Assembly (NCBI GenBank): GCA_030149205.1
Contig: JASBSB010000001.1
Coordinates: 930,001 to 962,000, forward strand
Length of the DNA: 32,000 nucleotides
From: Candidatus Heimdallarchaeota archaeon
GTDB lineage: Archaea > Asgardarchaeota > Heimdallarchaeia > Heimdallarchaeales > Kariarchaeaceae
Reading direction: 5' to 3'
Shown: positions 4,923 to 32,000 of the stretch, in pieces
Layout of the letters: the number at the start of each line of letters is the position of its first letter
How positions within the stretch are numbered: the first letter of the stretch is position 1
Program-made: the position numbers and the translations under genes
The notes under the pieces: model-generated
What the model was told of the DNA's origin: nothing
Seen by the model: the letters and a program-made list of their open reading frames with translations, nothing else
The model's database searches: none

Positions 4923-5549
4923 CTAATCAGGGGTTAAATACCCTGTAATGGTATCTACGCCTTCAGAAATTTCCCCAAAAAATTTGACAGAGACACCGTT
5001 AAGATTCTGGATATCTCGAACAGTCTCCTTCCCAAAAATCGAATAATACTCCTCAACCTGCTGTTGTGATACTTTTTGAAGCTGATTTAGGATAATCCAA
5101 GTGACTCCTTCAGTGTGGGGTTCAGTTGTTAAAGACCCAGAATAAACAAAGTATCCCCTGCGAGTGTCAAGTAGATTGCTAGGGTTTAGAATAAATGATT
5201 TGCCCTCTTTGAATGCTTCTAAAGCAGGGGTCAAGATATGATTTGTCTCTCCAGTGTCAAAAAGACTTGCGATTACCAGCAGGTCACCACCCGTGTTTGA
5301 ATGAACAAAATGAGCAGTTAGTGGAAATCTCAAACCGTTAAAGGTGTGTTCAGCACTGGTGTGAAGATGAAATTGGACGAGCCTATACTTACATTTATTC
5401 CAATTAATAAAAGATTCAGCATCAGTAAAGTTTAGTAGAGTCCATCCTGTATTCTCGGGATAGAATTCACTCTCACGGTAAGCGATTGAGGGAGGTGCAA
5501 TATTCGTATAATCTAAAGAATCAGAGCCTATGTCAATCGGAGACTGCAC
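4923..5549 (-). CDS. Alpha-class carbonic anhydrase, N-terminally short, no signal peptide
   Basis: QSPIDI, QFHLH, AEH, AHFVH, YSGSLTT, EGVTWII and RDIQ match the alpha-CA motifs in order. GTG start with an in-frame TAA four codons upstream. Confidence 0.9.
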   Translation of the reverse strand: MQSPIDIGSDSLDYTNIAPPSIAYRESEFYPENTGWTLLNFTDAESFINWNKCKYRLVQFHLHTSAEHTFNGLRFPLTAHFVHSNTGGDLLVIASLFDTGETNHILTPALEAFKEGKSFILNPSNLLDTRRGYFVYSGSLTTEPHTEGVTWIILNQLQKVSQQQVEEYYSIFGKETVRDIQNLNGVSVKFFGEISEGVDTITGYLTPD

Positions 5550-12168: not shown

Positions 12169-15100
12169 TCAGAGGTAGCGGGTAAAAATAGACTCATAAC
12201 CAAGCATCGGTCCATTGAAGGCCTGTGTGGGTAACTCAATTCCTAAGACAGTTGTTGTTGAAGGGATGGAAGCAGGGGTTACTGGTGCTATAGGGTATGT
12301 TACTGTTAGCGTGAAGCTTGCTGAACTTCCACTGTAATGATTCACCCTGATTGCCCATCTCCCAGTAGTTGTGGCAGAAAATGACAGGCTTTCTGGATTT
12401 GCGGTTGTGTAGGCTCTGGTGGCATAACCTGTTCCATAAACGTTTACTCCGGGTGCATATAGATACATATCCACGTCCGGACCGCTGGCCCAAGAAAGTG
12501 TGGCACTGATTGTTCCTACAGCAGTCACGTCAAAGTAGTAAACCTGATCCTTCACAGAAGTTGATACTATCCCTGTAAAGGTTGAAGTTTTGCTTGAGCC
12601 AGGTACAGGTACATTCACATCCAGTGTAAAACTAGCTGAGCTTCCACTGTAATGATTCACTCTGATTGCCCATTTACCCATTGTGCTGGTAGAATATGAC
12701 ATAAATTCTGGATTTGCGGTTGTGTAGGCTCTGGTGGCATAACCAGTTCCATAGACATTTACACCGGGAGCATAGAGGAACATATCTACATCTGGACCTG
12801 CTGGCCATGATAATGATGCGCTTATTGTTCCAGCAGCAGTCACATCAAAGTAAAAGACCAAATCTGGTGAGGTGCTAGAAACTGTCCCTGTGAAAGTGTA
12901 TTTCCCTGGTGTTGGAGGTGGAGTGTTGCTCACTGTAAATGTCCCACTGGCTGTACCGGTATTTGTCGCTGCATCTATTCCGCGTACCTCAATAGTGTGA
13001 CTCCCGTCAGCTAGCAAAGTTGTGTCCAAAGTAGCAGTCCAAGAAGTTCCAGTTCCTTTTGTAAGTGCAGTCCAGACCCCAGCGTCGATTCGGTAGTCAG
13101 TAGATGTAACCCCAATATTGTCAGTAATTGTTGCCTCTATGAGAGTAGAACCAGAAACCGTACCTGTGGGAGTAACTATGGTTACCACAGGGGGTATGGT
13201 ATCTGCGGGATTTAGTGTGGTTGCACTGGCACTTGTGGATTTGAGCCCTTCATTTGCCGAGGTATCCACAGCGGAGATCTGATAACTGTAGAGGGTGCTT
13301 GCTGTTAATCCAGTATCACTGAAGCTGGTGGATGTGGTGGTGGTAAGAAAGACTCCACCTCGGTAGATCCTATAATTCGCTAAGTCAGGCTCTGTATTGG
13401 CTGACCAACTCAGATCTATCTGAGTGGAAGATATTGCTGTCGCAGTTAGACCTGTGACCTGTGCCGGGGGTGTGGTGTCAGTTGGAGTCAATGTTGTAGC
13501 ACTGACACTTGCAGACTTAAGCCCCTCATTGGTAGAGGTATCCAGAGCTGAAACCTGATAATTGTACAACGTGTTTGCTGTCAGTCCAGTATCGCTGAAA
13601 CTTGTAACTGTTGTACTGGTCAGGTAAACCCCATCTCTATAAATTTTGTAGCTAGCCAAATCAGGTTCTGTATTAGCAGTCCAGCTTAGGTCTATCTGAG
13701 TTGTAGACACAGCTGATGCGGTGAGACCCTTGACCTGTGCTGGTGGTGTAGTATCTGATGAACCCCAGAGATTAATGAATGCATCCACATTATAATGATC
13801 GGAACCTGTATTTGCTGAAACAGTATCACCTGTGGTTGAATTTATGAGTAGGTTGTTAAATTTTTGATTTGTCACCAGAAAATCAATCCTTGATTGGTAT
13901 ATGGGATTTTGATGCCCGTATGTATATCCTGGAAGTGTAGGATTGAGTGTTCTGAATACATCTGTGAAGGTATGAACCGTTGATGAAAAAGCCCCATATG
14001 TTGGATCTGAGGGGTTAACCAGCATACTCATTGGGCCTATCCCTAGGTCTCCTTTTGGAGCAAGGGAACCTGTATCAAATGGCGAAAATGAGTTTAAGTC
14101 ACCAGCGAATACAATTGGGACATTCCCTAAGGTATCCATGTAATTAATTATACCTTCCATTGCCTTGTTTCTTTTATCCTCATTTGTTGCTCCAGAGCAA
14201 CATTTTAGATGAGACCCAATAATGTGGGTGTCAATACTGTTAATTTTTACTGTCACATCAAAGAAGTCATGAGAGGGGTTAAATGAGACACCACTATCTA
14301 AAGTCACAGTTGCAATCTGGTTAACTGTCACAATTGGATATCTGGAAAATACCGCTTCCCCACTTGTAGAATAACTGATTCCTTGAGTGACCCGACCCTG
14401 ATACGGTGCTTCATTGACGAAATATGTGTTAAACTCATTTAAGTATTGATTCATCAACAAGTCACCTCCGTCGTCCCAAGTTCCAACCTCCACAAACACC
14501 ACAATATCTGGGTTTTCCTCTTGAACAACCTTCTTCCAGTCGGGATTTAAACCTGATTGCTCCACATTATACGTCATCAGCTTGTAGGCTGTGCTGCTGG
14601 TGGGTGGTGGTGGAGGTGGCGCAGCATTATTTACCGTAACTGAAATTGAGGACTGCCCGATATTCCCAGCCGGGTCAGTGGCTTTAGCAAGCAAATTGTG
14701 ACTTCCGTCAGTGGTTGTGGTGGTATCCCAAGAGTAACTATTTGTTGAGGAGACGACAACTCCATCTATTGACAGTTCATAGGAGACTATACCGTTTGCA
14801 TCTGTTGCTGTAAATGTAACTGGAACTGTACCTGAAACTGTAGCTGCAGCAACAGGATTAGTAAAGCTGACAATGGGGGCAGTTGTGTCGGGTGGTGGGG
14901 GACCAGTGGTATAACTTCCTGCTTTCGGATCTCCGAGTGTCCCAGAATTTTCCCAGTCACTTCCAGAATCAGTGTCTGTGGCTGTGATCCTTCTAATGGT
15001 CATGTCTACTGCTGAAACAGGCCATCCAGTCACATAGTTTTCCCATGCGACAAAGTCAATCTCTGCATTTGAGGCATCAACCAACCTGACTTGATCTCCT

Positions 15101-15447
15101 GAATTAGAGAGTGCTAAACCTGACCACACCAAATCTGGTGCGAAGTTATAAAGTGCTGTAAACCCTGTTGAGTCCCTTGCAATTACAATGTACCCATTTG
15201 CTGGAATGGAACCAGAGAGTGCAGAAGAGCCAACATTGTCTTTTATAGTCCATCCTGCCAATGATATGGCGTTTGGTGTAGGGTTAAATAGTTCAACCCA
15301 TTCTTGTGTAGCGTCTGATGTTGGAGCGTCATACAACACCTCAGTTATAATCACATTCGTACCTGCAGGATTTGCAGATACCAATGCTGAGAGTTGTGCG
15401 CTGCTCAATATCAGAAGTAATGTAATTATTACGTACCTTAGTTTCAT
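12169..15447 (-). CDS. Secreted multidomain protein: signal peptide, lamin-tail domain, Ig-like, endonuclease/exonuclease/phosphatase (EEP), 2x FN3, Ig-like, 2x PPC-like
   Basis: Signal MKLRYVIITLLLILSS. LTD: VIITEVLYD..EWVELFNP..LSNSGD. EEP: TYNV, VFVE, GSHLK, GDLN, IDF, GSDH. FN3: DLSW..Y.IYR..F.DTGL..Y.Y.VSA.D. PPC-like: LSW..DVDMYLY..G.WAIRV. Confidence 0.88.
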   Translation of the reverse strand: MKLRYVIITLLLILSSAQLSALVSANPAGTNVIITEVLYDAPTSDATQEWVELFNPTPNAISLAGWTIKDNVGSSALSGSIPANGYIVIARDSTGFTALYNFAPDLVWSGLALSNSGDQVRLVDASNAEIDFVAWENYVTGWPVSAVDMTIRRITATDTDSGSDWENSGTLGDPKAGSYTTGPPPPDTTAPIVSFTNPVAAATVSGTVPVTFTATDANGIVSYELSIDGVVVSSTNSYSWDTTTTTDGSHNLLAKATDPAGNIGQSSISVTVNNAAPPPPPPTSSTAYKLMTYNVEQSGLNPDWKKVVQEENPDIVVFVEVGTWDDGGDLLMNQYLNEFNTYFVNEAPYQGRVTQGISYSTSGEAVFSRYPIVTVNQIATVTLDSGVSFNPSHDFFDVTVKINSIDTHIIGSHLKCCSGATNEDKRNKAMEGIINYMDTLGNVPIVFAGDLNSFSPFDTGSLAPKGDLGIGPMSMLVNPSDPTYGAFSSTVHTFTDVFRTLNPTLPGYTYGHQNPIYQSRIDFLVTNQKFNNLLINSTTGDTVSANTGSDHYNVDAFINLWGSSDTTPPAQVKGLTASAVSTTQIDLSWTANTEPDLASYKIYRDGVYLTSTTVTSFSDTGLTANTLYNYQVSALDTSTNEGLKSASVSATTLTPTDTTPPAQVTGLTATAISSTQIDLSWSANTEPDLANYRIYRGGVFLTTTTSTSFSDTGLTASTLYSYQISAVDTSANEGLKSTSASATTLNPADTIPPVVTIVTPTGTVSGSTLIEATITDNIGVTSTDYRIDAGVWTALTKGTGTSWTATLDTTLLADGSHTIEVRGIDAATNTGTASGTFTVSNTPPPTPGKYTFTGTVSSTSPDLVFYFDVTAAGTISASLSWPAGPDVDMFLYAPGVNVYGTGYATRAYTTANPEFMSYSTSTMGKWAIRVNHYSGSSASFTLDVNVPVPGSSKTSTFTGIVSTSVKDQVYYFDVTAVGTISATLSWASGPDVDMYLYAPGVNVYGTGYATRAYTTANPESLSFSATTTGRWAIRVNHYSGSSASFTLTVTYPIAPVTPASIPSTTTVLGIELPTQAFNGPMLGYESIFTRYL
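12298..12897 (-). repeat. Intragenic tandem PPC-like repeats (105-aa / 315-bp period)
   Basis: Both units contain the identical YAPGVNVYGTGYATRAYTTANPE and WAIRVNHYSGSSASFTL. Confidence 0.9.
13213..13755 (-). repeat. Intragenic tandem FN3 repeats (92-aa / 276-bp period)
   Basis: Units DTTPPAQVKGLTA...SVSATTL and DTTPPAQVTGLTA...SASATTL align without gaps. Confidence 0.9.
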
Positions 15448-29290: not shown

Positions 29291-29299
29291 TTTTATATA
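29291..29299 (+). promoter_or_regulatory. Putative archaeal TATA box for the LRR-GTPase gene
   Basis: TTTTATATA lies 21-29 nt upstream of the GTG at 29320. Confidence 0.45.
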
Positions 29300-29319: not shown

Positions 29320-30522
29320 GTGGACGATCTAGAGAAGTTAAGGAAGATATTTACTGAAATCGACCTTTCTGACTCTATTGATCAGATACTGAACTCTAAG
29401 AATACAAAATTTGTAAATAGAAAATTAATTTGGCTGGATCTTGGGTGTGTTTTGGAGGATGTTCAGGAGGAAATTAGGCTGGGTGAGTTCACCGAACTAA
29501 CCTATTTGGGGCTATATGCAAATAATTTGAAGATTCTACCTGTAAACATGTTTCAGGGATTGCACAGGTTACAATATATTGATCTAGGTGAGAATAACTT
29601 GGATGAACTTCCTGAAGAAATTTTTCGTGGGTTAGAAAAGTTGGATGCCCTATGGTTATATTCCAACAATTTACGAGCACTACCAGTCTCACTTTACAAC
29701 CTACACAACCTTAGAGAATTAAATGTTAATTTAAACAAGCTCAATTTCAATTCAATAAGAGAGTTAAGAACACTTAAAAAGTTGGAGAGGCTAGAAGTTG
29801 CTCTGAACCCTGAAATATCACCGATTGAGCTGGCGAAATTAAAATTTGGAAAATTAAAATATCTTATTGTTGATGATACACTTCCCGATGGTAACATAAT
29901 AATCAAAAACCTTTACGAAATCCAGGAGGAAGAAGATTCACACACGAGGTCTAGTAAGGTAATCTTTGGACTTATAACCGGGTTTATGGGCTCAGGAAAA
30001 TCAACTCTTATCAAACATATCCCAAATAAGATACAGACTGACATTACTCCCGACATTCAACCTAGATTGTTTTTTGATAAACATTTCATGATAAAGTATT
30101 CTCCAGATACAAATTTAGTGTTATTTGAGTTGGACGCGCCTACAATTTCAACTTGGACACAGTACATATCAGTTTCAGAATTTGTCTTCGTGCTAATCTC
30201 CGAAGAAGATCTAAGTAAAAGAGATGATGAATTTAAAGAATTCCTTGAACACATAATCAAGAATAGGTCCAGAGAATCTAGAGTTCTCCTTCTTGTGACA
30301 AAGGTCTCTAAGGGAACTAAGAAGAAAACAATTAATTCTAACCTTAGTTCCATTGTAGAAAGGATAGATGACTGTCCCATAGATTTATCTCATGATTTGT
30401 TTCTTGTTTCAATGGGAAACCCATTTCCAGATCTTGGAGGTCAACAAAAAGTCAATCTGAATGAAAAAGAAATTCAACTGATTTTTAATAGTATCAAACC
30501 ATTGAACAAAAACCTAAGCTAA
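29320..30522 (+). CDS. Leucine-rich repeat protein with a C-terminal degenerate small-GTPase-like P-loop domain
   Basis: Five clear LxxLxLxxNxL-type repeats (LTYLGLYANNL, LQYIDLGENNL, LDALWLYSNNL, LRELNVNLNKL, LERLEVALN), then the P-loop GFMGSGKST and a Ras-like strand order. Confidence 0.85.
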   Translation: MDDLEKLRKIFTEIDLSDSIDQILNSKNTKFVNRKLIWLDLGCVLEDVQEEIRLGEFTELTYLGLYANNLKILPVNMFQGLHRLQYIDLGENNLDELPEEIFRGLEKLDALWLYSNNLRALPVSLYNLHNLRELNVNLNKLNFNSIRELRTLKKLERLEVALNPEISPIELAKLKFGKLKYLIVDDTLPDGNIIIKNLYEIQEEEDSHTRSSKVIFGLITGFMGSGKSTLIKHIPNKIQTDITPDIQPRLFFDKHFMIKYSPDTNLVLFELDAPTISTWTQYISVSEFVFVLISEEDLSKRDDEFKEFLEHIIKNRSRESRVLLLVTKVSKGTKKKTINSNLSSIVERIDDCPIDLSHDLFLVSMGNPFPDLGGQQKVNLNEKEIQLIFNSIKPLNKNLS

Positions 30523-30524
30523 AT

Positions 30525-32000
30525 CTATTTGCCTGATAAGAAAAATAGGGAATAGATCAGGATGAGATCAATACTTTCTGGGTCAGTTAGTATAGTGGAG
30601 AGTGTTTTTAATATTAGGTCAGGCTCTTTATTTTCATAACTGACACCAATTAAATGATAATATTTAGGAGTTCCTATGATTATCTCTGTCTCAGTCTCAT
30701 TTAAAGGGATTGTGTCAGCTTGAAACATGAACCTAAAAGATTCATTATTAGATTTAGCTATAATTATAAAAATATCGTTTCTTATTCCATTCATACGTTT
30801 TTTGACCGAGGTAAATGGTGTTTGCCAATGAACATCCCTGTAGTAAGATGAACCTACTGTAAGAATTGTTTGATTTATCTGTAGGTTAGGAAGAGAGGAA
30901 TACATGATGTTTTCAAGAACCTCACCATCAACAGAAACTAATTCAGGGAACACCTTACTTGAATTGTGGAACTTGATCAATTGAGTTGAGTTTATTTCCA
31001 ACAGGCTGGAACCTGACGCTAGTTGTTCTGCAATTGTTTGGTGGTCGATTTTGTCTTCTTGAATTACGATGGCTTCAAGAACATCAATCAAATTTTTATG
31101 TGGAATCCCTAGGTAAATTCCATCATTCTCTAACAGAACCTTCTGAGCCAGTTTGCTTCCAATCTCCTTAATCTCTTCAATAAGATCATCCCTGTTTAGC
31201 AGCTTGAATAATTGTTGGAGAGCTTCTTTTCTTTTCCCTTCTGAAATCAGACCTTCAGCAAGGATATAATCTAAGTATTGATCATAAGGAGGAATAAGCT
31301 CATTTTCAAGGAATTGTTGTAAATTATCAGGTGAAAGTGAATTGCTCCACTTAGAATTATAATTTAGTATTGTAAAGATTCGGGCCAAGGATAGATGAAG
31401 CCATGCTTGGGCTGGAAGAATTGGACTCCACTGATCAACAATTGATTTTAATTGGATGACTAACAATTGAGTTTTGTCCAGATCATTTTCACTAAGTGAA
31501 ACTGGGTTCCAAAGAATTCCTGTTGAGAATTGAATATAATCCCTCAAAATTGAAGCATAATACATAGGATCATCTTTTTTTCCCAATTCTCCAGCCAACA
31601 CCACAAAGTTCCCCAATTTACGAATCTCGTCAATTACCTCATCGGACAATGTTGCTTTAGATTGAACTATTTCGATTTGAATTATTAATACCTGTACACT
31701 CACTAATTCCTCAAGCTCTATATTGTCATCTTTTGTAAGCCTCTTTGATGTTGTAAATTTAACTGTCAATTTTTTTAATTTTGAGGTAACCTCATCTTTA
31801 ATCTCATTCAATGCTTCTAACTGAACATAGTTGCCACCAAATAAGTTGCTTAGCTGTAGAGTTAGATAATTCTTTAATGATGCATATCCAAAGTCTTTGT
31901 TGTAAATTAGCTCTTCATTCGAACTAAGTATACCATATCTCAAATTTTTTATCCTATAAGAATATTGAGCAAAATTCGTTAATTCAGTATCTCCATAATT
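30525..32000 (-). CDS. Large hypothetical protein, 5'-truncated by the window end, with possible TPR-like helices
   Basis: The frame of the 472-aa ORF stays open 19 more codons (NYGDTELTNFAQYSYRIKN) up to base 32000, so TTG 31943 is probably not the start. Confidence 0.75.
   Translation of the reverse strand, partial: NYGDTELTNFAQYSYRIKNLRYGILSSNEELIYNKDFGYASLKNYLTLQLSNLFGGNYVQLEALNEIKDEVTSKLKKLTVKFTTSKRLTKDDNIELEELVSVQVLIIQIEIVQSKATLSDEVIDEIRKLGNFVVLAGELGKKDDPMYYASILRDYIQFSTGILWNPVSLSENDLDKTQLLVIQLKSIVDQWSPILPAQAWLHLSLARIFTILNYNSKWSNSLSPDNLQQFLENELIPPYDQYLDYILAEGLISEGKRKEALQQLFKLLNRDDLIEEIKEIGSKLAQKVLLENDGIYLGIPHKNLIDVLEAIVIQEDKIDHQTIAEQLASGSSLLEINSTQLIKFHNSSKVFPELVSVDGEVLENIMYSSLPNLQINQTILTVGSSYYRDVHWQTPFTSVKKRMNGIRNDIFIIIAKSNNESFRFMFQADTIPLNETETEIIIGTPKYYHLIGVSYENKEPDLILKTLSTILTDPESIDLILIYSLFFLSGK

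Follow-up and report, generated by a model that had tools for sequence, protein, structure and literature searches.

A leucine-rich repeat protein with a putatively rewired, very divergent Arf-related G domain in Heimdallarchaeia

The stretch of DNA analysed here, referred to as the window, comprises 32,000 nucleotides (positions 930,001 to 962,000) of contig JASBSB010000001.1 from a Candidatus Heimdallarchaeota archaeon, with a G+C content of about 34-44%; the host contig is 995 kb long and belongs to a 3.3-Mb genome that is 93.5% complete. Towards the end of the window lies a gene for a protein in which leucine-rich repeats (LRRs) are joined to a G domain of highly derived sequence, referred to below as the LRR-G protein (Table 1). 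The open reading frame (ORF) opens with GTG, the earliest start available after an in-frame stop ten codons upstream, and the placement of the TATA-box-like TTTATATA ahead of it is consistent with an archaeal promoter giving a leaderless or short-leader transcript. The gene is real and conserved, because full-length orthologues occur in four relatives (three genomes from the genus itself and one from a sister genus) and the AlphaFold2 (AF2) model of the whole chain reaches a predicted local distance difference test score (pLDDT) of 88.9; a paralogue was looked for in the same genome and none was found. What is new here is a lineage-specific family of Arf-related G domains that has a novel set of conserved motifs and has been joined to LRRs independently of the Roco proteins.

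Table 1. Position of the LRR-G gene in the window and of the features recognized in it.
Feature	Position in window	Strand	Basis
Whole gene, LRR plus derived small-G-domain protein, 400 aa	29320..30522 (stop codon included)	+	ORF, orthologues, AF2 model
TATA-box-like TTTATATA, ~24 nt 5' of the GTG start	29292..29299	+	sequence read directly
N-terminal two-helix cap, residues 1-33	29320..29418	+	DSSP helices 3-13 and 17-24, pLDDT >90; conserved in orthologue alignment
About seven leucine-rich repeats, residues 34-200, 24-residue period	29419..29919	+	Pfam; AF2 strands every ~24 residues
Small-GTPase-fold domain, residues 213-392, b1-a1-b2-b3-a2-b4-a3-b5-a4-b6-(hairpin)-a5	29956..30495	+	AF2, Foldseek, VIA-align
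G1/P-loop GFMGSGKS, residues 221-228, canonical GxxxxGK[ST]	29980..30003	+	sequence and family alignments
Switch-I region, residues 243-254; P244-D245 in place of the Arf-family P-T	30046..30081	+	profile alignments
G3 equivalent, E270-L-D272-A-P274-T275	30127..30144	+	profile alignments, AF2 strand end, family table
W279, invariant, aligned with the switch-II Trp that is conserved in Arf-related GTPases	30154..30156	+	HMMER, hhalign
G4 equivalent, T327-K-V-S330 in place of NKxD	30298..30309	+	hhalign; HMMER vs 8oun; clade table
Extended beta6 and extra beta-hairpin, residues 360-380, at the site of the G5 SAK loop	30397..30459	+	DSSP, both models

The architecture was examined in two AF2 models, one of the full-length protein (predicted template modelling score 0.81; 16-sequence family alignment) and one of the C-terminal domain only (pLDDT 89.5; 31-sequence alignment). 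Both have the strand and helix order of a small GTPase, with a six-stranded sheet containing an antiparallel beta2, five helices and a b2-b3 hairpin. In the N-terminal half, Pfam finds LRR_8 (4e-13), LRR_14 (4e-12) and LRR_4 on residues 39-163, all significant; the short LRR strands of the model reach residue 197, and a short low-confidence linker follows (206-210). The chain ends about eight residues past alpha5 of the G domain, so no COR domain is possible, and the preliminary description of the locus, as an LRR plus G domain without COR, is borne out. A wide VIA-align scan of 48,161 PDB representatives, independent of Foldseek, returned TRAFAC GTPases in all of the 50 rows listed (Z 12.2-14.5), including an Asgard Rag-like protein (14.5), Arf1 (14.0), Arl2/Cin4 (13.9), G-alpha (13.8), EF-Tu (13.8) and the LRRK1 Roc domain (13.1), and no SIMIBI or ABC fold. 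Foldseek with the G domain alone placed mostly Arf and Arl structures in the top ranks, with Arf-GDP favoured. The modelled domain is thus predicted to be a TRAFAC GTPase fold.

At the level of single sequences the domain is barely recognizable. No Pfam or NCBIfam model exceeds its threshold on the C-terminal half, and the sub-threshold matches to AAA_22, cobW, KAP, ABC, Sll1717 and Arf (14-16 bits) mostly cover only the Walker A motif; a single-sequence PDB search matched only 22 residues of YjiA, and the UvrA matches of a profile search are confined to the P-loop. The likeness to G3E proteins (CobW/YjiA) and UvrA is local: TGFMGSGKST can be compared with TGFLGAGKTT of YjiA and TGVSGSGKS of UvrA, ELD[AE]PT recalls the ABC Walker-B LDEPT, and ExxG is the G3E form of G3. 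Unlike in these proteins, the spacing between Walker A and Walker B is 43 residues and there is no Q-loop or signature motif, and the matches themselves span 15-45 residues. The GTPase-type b2-b3 hairpin of the models argues against SIMIBI G3E or ABC membership. Another P-loop class, which the preliminary description had left as an alternative, is therefore rejected, as the AAA_22, cobW, KAP, ABC, Sll1717, YjiA and UvrA matches amount to little beyond Walker A and the fold contradicts them.

Profile methods were more informative. A profile of the family searched against PDB sequences ranked Arl6 first (E 3.5e-5) and the Asgard ArfR 8OUN next (1.7e-4), followed by Arl3, Arl2/Cin4, G-alpha, Der, HodArfR1 and Sar1, with Ras and Rab lower. 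In hhalign comparisons with three alignments drawn from the same genome and its family, the ArfR-like set gave 96.4% (E 1.2e-9, 130 aligned columns), the Rab/Ras-like set 43% (E 2.4e-4, 117 columns) and the Rag-like set 36% (E 3.7e-4, 111 columns). Because both the PDB ranking and hhalign favour Arf and ArfR, the domain is best described, from its sequence, as a very divergent Arf-related G domain. The Pfam Arf model (PF00025) scores 14.3-16.3 bits on the LRR-G protein, below its gathering cut-off of 22.3, and matches four of nine relatives (best E 4.5e-7). A protein-language-model look-up, used as a lead only, listed Gtr1/Rag, Arl16 and Arf clusters after those of marine group III (MGIII) archaea.

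The comparison with Asgard ArfR and Arf/Arl proteins (PF00025; 8OUK-8OUN, 4V0K Arl6; bioRxiv 10.1101/2024.02.28.582541) shows what has been kept and what has not. Beyond the TRAFAC small-GTPase fold, the switch-II Trp (W279) and the acidic beta2 residue (D253) of Arf/Arl6 are conserved and aligned in the LRR-G family. Unlike Arf, the LRR-G protein has no PT(I/V)G Thr, DVGGQ, NKxD or SAK, an LRR domain replaces the N-terminal amphipathic helix, and a hairpin is inserted at G5; ArfR has canonical motifs (bioRxiv 10.1101/2024.02.28.582541). The protein also evolves at about double the rate of ArfR in these genomes: its orthologues are 35-37% identical within the genus, versus 70-73% when the same pairs of genomes are compared by their ArfR orthologue. 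The host genome itself carries at least 24 canonical small GTPases matching Ras/Roc hidden Markov models (HMMs) and one Rag-like protein of 529 residues, with motifs intact where inspected. The preliminary description had looked to a phylogeny against Asgard small GTPases, and with ten canonical ones of the same genome as reference, a maximum-likelihood tree separates the family from them with support of 100/99.

An exhaustive phmmer search, run over 1.84 billion cluster representatives, brought up only 16 relatives. About half of them have the LRR-G architecture (~380-393 aa); the remainder (144-224 aa) consist of the domain alone, except for one 224-aa fragment of a fused protein. A word-based homologue search with the single G domain returned only the query itself. 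A profile search collected 331 proteins, among whose best-listed members a 158-aa subfamily of marine metagenomic origin, assigned to MGIII/Poseidoniia archaea, predominates, alongside stand-alone proteins; the few matches with a named source come from Heimdallarchaeota LC_2, Kariarchaeaceae and a marine 'Euryarchaeota' metagenome-assembled genome (MAG), and bear the generic annotations 'GTPase domain-containing protein', 'hypothetical protein' and 'GTPase SAR1 family'. When the family profile was searched in 400 genomes of the phylum, representing more than 30 families, each of the 12 genomes of one taxonomic family (the host and 11 relatives) gave exactly one strong match, and none occurred in the other taxonomic families. 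Within that family the LRR-fused form is found in two genera, as frames of 383-418 aa, and the stand-alone form in four (193-222 aa). Longer architectures (393-2000 aa) were looked for and none was found, which is weak evidence. A full-text literature search found no paper describing this family, which has ExD[GA]PT at G3, or its signature, and it is a small, Arf-related and apparently undescribed family.

Within the tree, the stand-alone Heimdallarchaeial proteins form one clade (99/97), which shares a six-residue insert in switch I, and the fused and MGIII proteins form another (99/96); the protein P0014 branches first. The MGIII clade lies beside the LRR-G protein with support of 90/80, a placement that is not trusted in detail, as both sit on long branches. 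That Kariarchaeaceae-like Heimdallarchaeia and MGIII both have the family suggests that it was transferred between pelagic archaea. Rup3, found class-wide in Heimdallarchaeia and with expansions between G1 and G2 and between G2 and G3 (bioRxiv 10.1101/2024.02.28.582541), is likewise a divergent Ras-superfamily group confined to Heimdallarchaeia and lacking a eukaryotic counterpart. Judged by Rup3's published description, the ExD[GA]PT family does not look like it: the LRR-G protein has Ras-like G1-G3 spacing without expansion (43 residues from K227 to E270), and among the 400 genomes searched the family occurs in one of the more than 30 families of the phylum.

The motifs were mapped by HMMER alignment with Arl6 and the Asgard ArfR structure 8OUN, and, with hhalign, against the canonical small GTPases that the host genome itself encodes. 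G1 is canonical, GFMGSGKS(T) at residues 221-229. Switch I reads TPDI (243-246), in which D245 maps to the G2 Thr at a position that is variable across the family; D253, invariant in the family, aligns with the acidic beta2 residue of Arl6. At G3 the sequence is (L)FELDA (268-273), and most alignments equate E270 with the Walker-B Asp, A273 with the Gly of DxxG and P274 with the catalytic Gln. Since the modelled beta3 strand stops at D272 in both AF2 models, the Walker-B acid could be either E270 or D272; the alternative register, D272-A-P-T, places Pro or a gap at the Gln position, and no register gives a canonical DxxG plus Gln. G4 reads TKVS (327-330). SAK of G5 is not recognizable, 'SMG' and a beta-hairpin standing in its place, with beta6 prolonged and pairing with an extra strand before alpha5. 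The preliminary description had read the motifs in the same way (an intact G1, TPDI instead of PTI in switch I, FELDA instead of DxxG and TKVS instead of N/TKxD), and its readings hold; every G3 register lacks DxxG(Q).

These substitutions are, for the most part, properties of the family. Across 31-37 members that are only 19-31% identical to the G domain of the LRR-G protein, M223, G226, K227, S228, D253, E270, D272, P274, T275 and W279 never vary, and T220 and G221 are present in each row that spans them. The family signature can be written as TGxMGxGKS, D253, E270-x-D272-[GA]-P-T and W279, with one row each having Ser or Glu at [GA]. G4 follows the clades more closely. NKAD occurs in the first-branching P0014 and in no other member; the stand-alone Heimdallarchaeial proteins mostly have NNxD, with N and D kept; MGIII proteins have NR[VTI]x, with no Asp; and the fused clade has NNY[TN], NKYT, [ST]xxP or TKVS, with the Asp lost. 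In Ras-like GTPases, substitution of the NKxD Asp abolishes guanine specificity, and loss of the Gln and Thr cripples both intrinsic hydrolysis and hydrolysis assisted by GTPase-activating proteins (GAPs). Judged by its residues, the fused clade has probably lost guanine specificity.

Could the canonical motifs have migrated instead? A normally cycling, GTP-specific GTPase with displaced motifs would be in keeping with the literal Arf-type DLGGQ at residues 371-375 (nt 30430-30444), which might be taken for a relocated G3, with the conservation of P-[DN]-x-G-G in the fused clade, and with the NNxD and NKAD of stand-alone relatives. However, in both models DLGGQ is the tight turn of the extra hairpin after beta6, on the G5/base side of the fold, and not in the position after beta3 that a G3 motif occupies. 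Only P-[DN]-x-G-G is kept, and only in the fused clade; the fifth residue is N, L, Q, S, G or I, so that the Gln is not conserved, and in the family table neither the stand-alone nor the MGIII clade has the motif. The models thus point to a structural turn on the base-binding side rather than a displaced G3. With the G4 Asp and SAK also lost in this copy, we regard migration of the motifs as unlikely.

A second alternative is a fully dead, class-i pseudoGTPase that binds no nucleotide and acts as a structural or protein-binding module behind the LRRs. The domain lacks the G2 Thr, the catalytic Gln, the G4 Asp, G5 and, in this copy, the G3 Gly; its gene evolves fast even within the genus; and class-i pseudoGTPases that keep the GTPase fold do exist, such as AAGAB (PMC12490416). 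Yet class-i examples are without any G motifs (PMC12490416), and the invariance of GxxxxGKS together with two or three acids, at such low identity, is hard to explain without a bound phosphate and metal. We therefore consider a fully dead domain quite unlikely. The preliminary description had proposed a 'catalytically dead or non-guanine-specific' domain; the second half, extended to poor hydrolysis, is the most reasonable reading of the residues, and the first is too strong in view of the invariant signature.

PseudoGTPases were reportedly sorted into four classes, i to iv, by Stiegler and Boggon in 2020. The LRR-G domain resembles AAGAB, the p190RhoGAP pG domains and CENP-M (PMC12490416, PMC5593906) in combining a GTPase fold with non-canonical motifs and a protein-interaction context. 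In class i, as in AAGAB, the G motifs are absent altogether (PMC12490416), unlike in the LRR-G domain, whose P-loop is canonical and invariant and whose new acids are conserved. At best, its residues would fit a class ii/iii nucleotide-binding pseudoGTPase or a non-canonical NTPase, and not class i.

The LRR half offers a second line of evidence. Conservation was scored as the frequency of the commonest residue among eight fused-clade representatives clustered at <=50% identity. On the concave face, the exposed 'x' positions in the strands with the LxxLxLxxN pattern score 0.75, close to the structural Leu/Asn positions (0.79), versus 0.43 for the convex side and 0.475 for the whole G domain. 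On the concave face of LRR1-6, W38, D40, G42, Y62, G64, Y66, D88, G90, W112, Y114, E133, N135, N137, R157 and E159 are invariant or nearly so in the fused clade. Because this face is conserved and not hypervariable, a fixed partner or intramolecular docking is indicated in place of a diversifying immune receptor: the concave face probably binds one fixed partner or docks on the protein's own G domain.

This bears on the suggestion, also made in the preliminary description, that the protein acts in defence. An anti-virus or conflict sensor similar to NLR proteins or AP-GTPases, in which the LRRs detect an invader and the NTPase triggers a response, would follow a common logic of immune receptors, in which LRRs are combined with a P-loop NTPase; the orthologues diverge fast, and there are weak sub-threshold matches to the nSTAND and KAP P-loops. 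Nevertheless, there is no effector domain, a PADLOC scan gave no significant match, the gene is single-copy and sits among ordinary genes in all 12 family genomes, and the fold is that of a small GTPase, not STAND. With the concave face conserved, a role in defence appears very unlikely, and that suggestion is not upheld.

The layout of the chain invites comparison with Roco proteins. As in the C. tepidum protein (6HLU) and LRRK1/2, an N-terminal LRR domain stands directly ahead of a Ras-like G domain, and a shared logic, with an LRR surface coupled to a nucleotide switch, is plausible. Foldseek with the full-length model ranks C. tepidum LRR-Roc-COR, LRRK1 and LRRK2 best (E 1e-10 to 1e-6), with template modelling (TM) scores of only 0.25-0.30; their rank reflects the shared two-domain layout of LRR and G fold. 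What defines a Roco protein is the tandem of Roc and COR (PMC6337361); the LRR-G protein has neither this tandem nor an output domain, and its G domain is not Roc by sequence. Pfam Roc (PF08477) gives no match to it at E up to 10, the genome's 24 Roc-HMM matches do not include the protein, and COR (PF16095), searched in the same genome (93.5% complete), was not found. Because the closest G-domain relatives are stand-alone proteins, the profiles are nearest to Arf-related GTPases and there is no Roc match or COR, the arrangement is an independent fusion resembling a Roco protein, not a truncated one, and the label 'Roc-like' in the preliminary description has to be given up. From the composition of the family, the fusion would have arisen inside a family of stand-alone G proteins. 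A degenerate Roco protein, descended from an LRR-Roc-COR ancestor through loss of COR and erosion of the Roc motifs, is the least probable explanation considered, as the Foldseek ranks and the LRRK1 Roc Z-score are outweighed by the low TM scores, the missing Roc-COR tandem, the search for longer family members that found none (weak evidence), the stand-alone form of the closest relatives (150-220 aa), the single copy per genome, whether fused or stand-alone, and the preference of the profiles for Arf-related GTPases.

Taken jointly, these results are best explained by an LRR domain joined to a derived, Arf-related G domain that works as a nucleotide-dependent switch or scaffold, to which we assign a probability of roughly 0.6. 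The fold, the family, the motif substitutions, the distribution and the independence of the fusion from Roco proteins were computed directly; the mechanism is read from them with more caution. The protein would be a cytoplasmic, two-module chain, a short LRR solenoid followed by a highly derived Arf-related small G domain. NTP and Mg2+ would still be bound through K227 and S228 of the P-loop and through E270 and/or D272 as Walker-B acid; binding of phosphate and metal is expected because the P-loop is complete, with its Mg2+-ligand Ser, and two or three acids near b2/b3 are invariant. The gamma-phosphate sensors, namely the G2 Thr and the Gly of DxxG (Ala in this copy), appear to have been lost, as do the guanine readers (the NKxD Asp and SAK), and Pro seems to have replaced the catalytic Gln. 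With these residues missing, a GTP-specific switch cycled by GAPs and by guanine nucleotide exchange factors is unlikely. Most likely, the domain would serve as a slowly hydrolysing, or partner- or dimer-activated, nucleotide-dependent switch or scaffold with relaxed base specificity, in which the family-invariant D253, D272 and T275 are candidates for taking over Mg2+ and gamma-phosphate contacts.

The nucleotide state may in turn be coupled to whatever the LRR face binds, which would make the protein a minimal sensor or adaptor built from LRRs and a G domain, comparable in this respect to the LRR-Roc portion of Roco proteins and outside that family. Because the deviant residues constitute a family-wide invariant signature next to an intact P-loop, they are taken as a rewired site and not as decay. 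The suggestion of a nucleotide-binding module with an LRR recognition surface, made in the preliminary description, thus remains the most reasonable reading of the residues. A bolder composite, which we put forward only tentatively, would see an undescribed branch of the Ras superfamily whose site has been rebuilt on E270/D272 with D253 and T275, replacing the universal switch-I Thr and the catalytic Gln, whose fused clade is ATP-using or base-promiscuous and gained its LRRs independently of Roco proteins, within the lineage of archaea nearest to eukaryotes, and whose stand-alone form has been exchanged with MGIII.

Several observations weigh against the reading of the protein as an Arf-related, nucleotide-dependent switch or scaffold. 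Nucleotide binding, base specificity and hydrolysis are all deduced from residues. The G3 register is ambiguous by two to five residues, hhalign against the ArfR-only set shifting it by five with low local confidence, which makes the roles proposed for E270, D272 and T275 uncertain. The margin in favour of Arf-related GTPases in the PDB profile search is modest (27 versus about 20 bits), and the VIA-align Z-scores do not separate Arf, Rag, G-alpha, EF-Tu and Roc. The fast evolution of the gene could reflect relaxed constraint, to which the fixed signature residues and the fixed concave face may be opposed, since they argue for functional constraint and not for drift towards a pseudogene. Finally, no conserved partner gene was found: the gene for a 606-aa protein that lies next to the LRR-G gene is syntenic only in close relatives and is unlinked from the stand-alone G gene.

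The gene's neighbours in the window are functionally unrelated and include no operon partner pointing to a pathway; its 5' neighbours encode an AsnC/TRASH regulator, a zf-CopZ protein and a DinB/DUF1572 protein. The 606-aa gene is convergent and lies on the 3' side, at 30525-32000 (-), extending on to G000:C4:962345 (L018:2526-4346). Its product matches no Pfam family, a TPR-like resemblance being a lead only, and is restricted to the same Heimdallarchaeial family, where it is present in 10 of 11 relatives. The two genes are near each other in four genomes of close relatives, in differing orientation; in genomes with a stand-alone G gene the 606-aa homologue sits on other contigs, and it shows no homology to the ~760-aa protein encoded beside the stand-alone G genes. 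With synteny limited to close relatives, the 606-aa protein was rejected as a functional partner and no link is claimed.

In two genomes of the same genus, a gene for a Ste24-like CAAX protease (Peptidase_M48 with an N-terminal domain of five transmembrane helices) lies between the LRR-G and 606-aa genes (L015:7853-9034 (-), with an equivalent in L016); this neighbourhood is probably coincidental, the LRR-G protein itself having no CAAX end. In two genomes with a stand-alone G gene, a protein of 384-386 aa consisting entirely of LRRs is encoded 1.9-2.1 kb from the 606-aa homologue (L062:5679-6830 (-) and L063:2108-3265 (+)). It matches the LRR-G protein in length and in its N-terminal cap, a likeness that hints at a resident LRR gene whose C-terminal repeats gave way to the G domain.

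The unfused relatives have contexts of their own. Stand-alone Heimdallarchaeial loci from four MAGs (L047, L059, L060 and L061) share as neighbours a PAC2-family protein, which resembles proteasome assembly chaperones, a ~730-795-aa protein without a Pfam family, and a class IV aminotransferase, the G gene standing between the first two of these. At the MGIII loci (L040-L058) the 158-aa gene, in overlapping frames, lies between a SpoU-type RNA methyltransferase and an uncharacterized 144-aa gene, followed by pyruvate phosphate dikinase, and this order is found on most MGIII contigs of sufficient reach. Both contexts may be mere synteny among close relatives, and they indicate no mechanism.

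Elsewhere in the window, positions 4923-5549 (-) encode a protein with a match to the eukaryotic-type (alpha) carbonic anhydrase family (PF00194, E 8e-26), unusual in archaea. A 1092-aa protein at 12169-15447 (-) combines lamin-tail, Big_7, endonuclease/exonuclease/phosphatase, fn3 and PPC domains and has an orthologue at 57% identity in a genome of the same genus.

The many LRR proteins of Asgard archaea have no assigned function (bioRxiv 10.64898/2026.10.28.762692), and these archaea are being mined for the roots of eukaryotic GTPase signalling, for which the LRR-G gene provides a compact case. Its product is tractable, at about 45 kDa with no membrane parts, and its LRR surface is hard-wired to the G domain. 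The arrangement of LRRs with a small GTPase has arisen at least twice, here and in Roco proteins. The invariant residues of the family break the supposedly universal rules for G2, G3 and G4 while the P-loop is kept, which makes the family a test of how far the Ras fold can be rewired. If the domain were merely a constitutively loaded scaffold, it would be one more pseudoGTPase; if it proved to be ATP-using or dimer-activated, it would represent a new mechanistic class among archaeal small G proteins.

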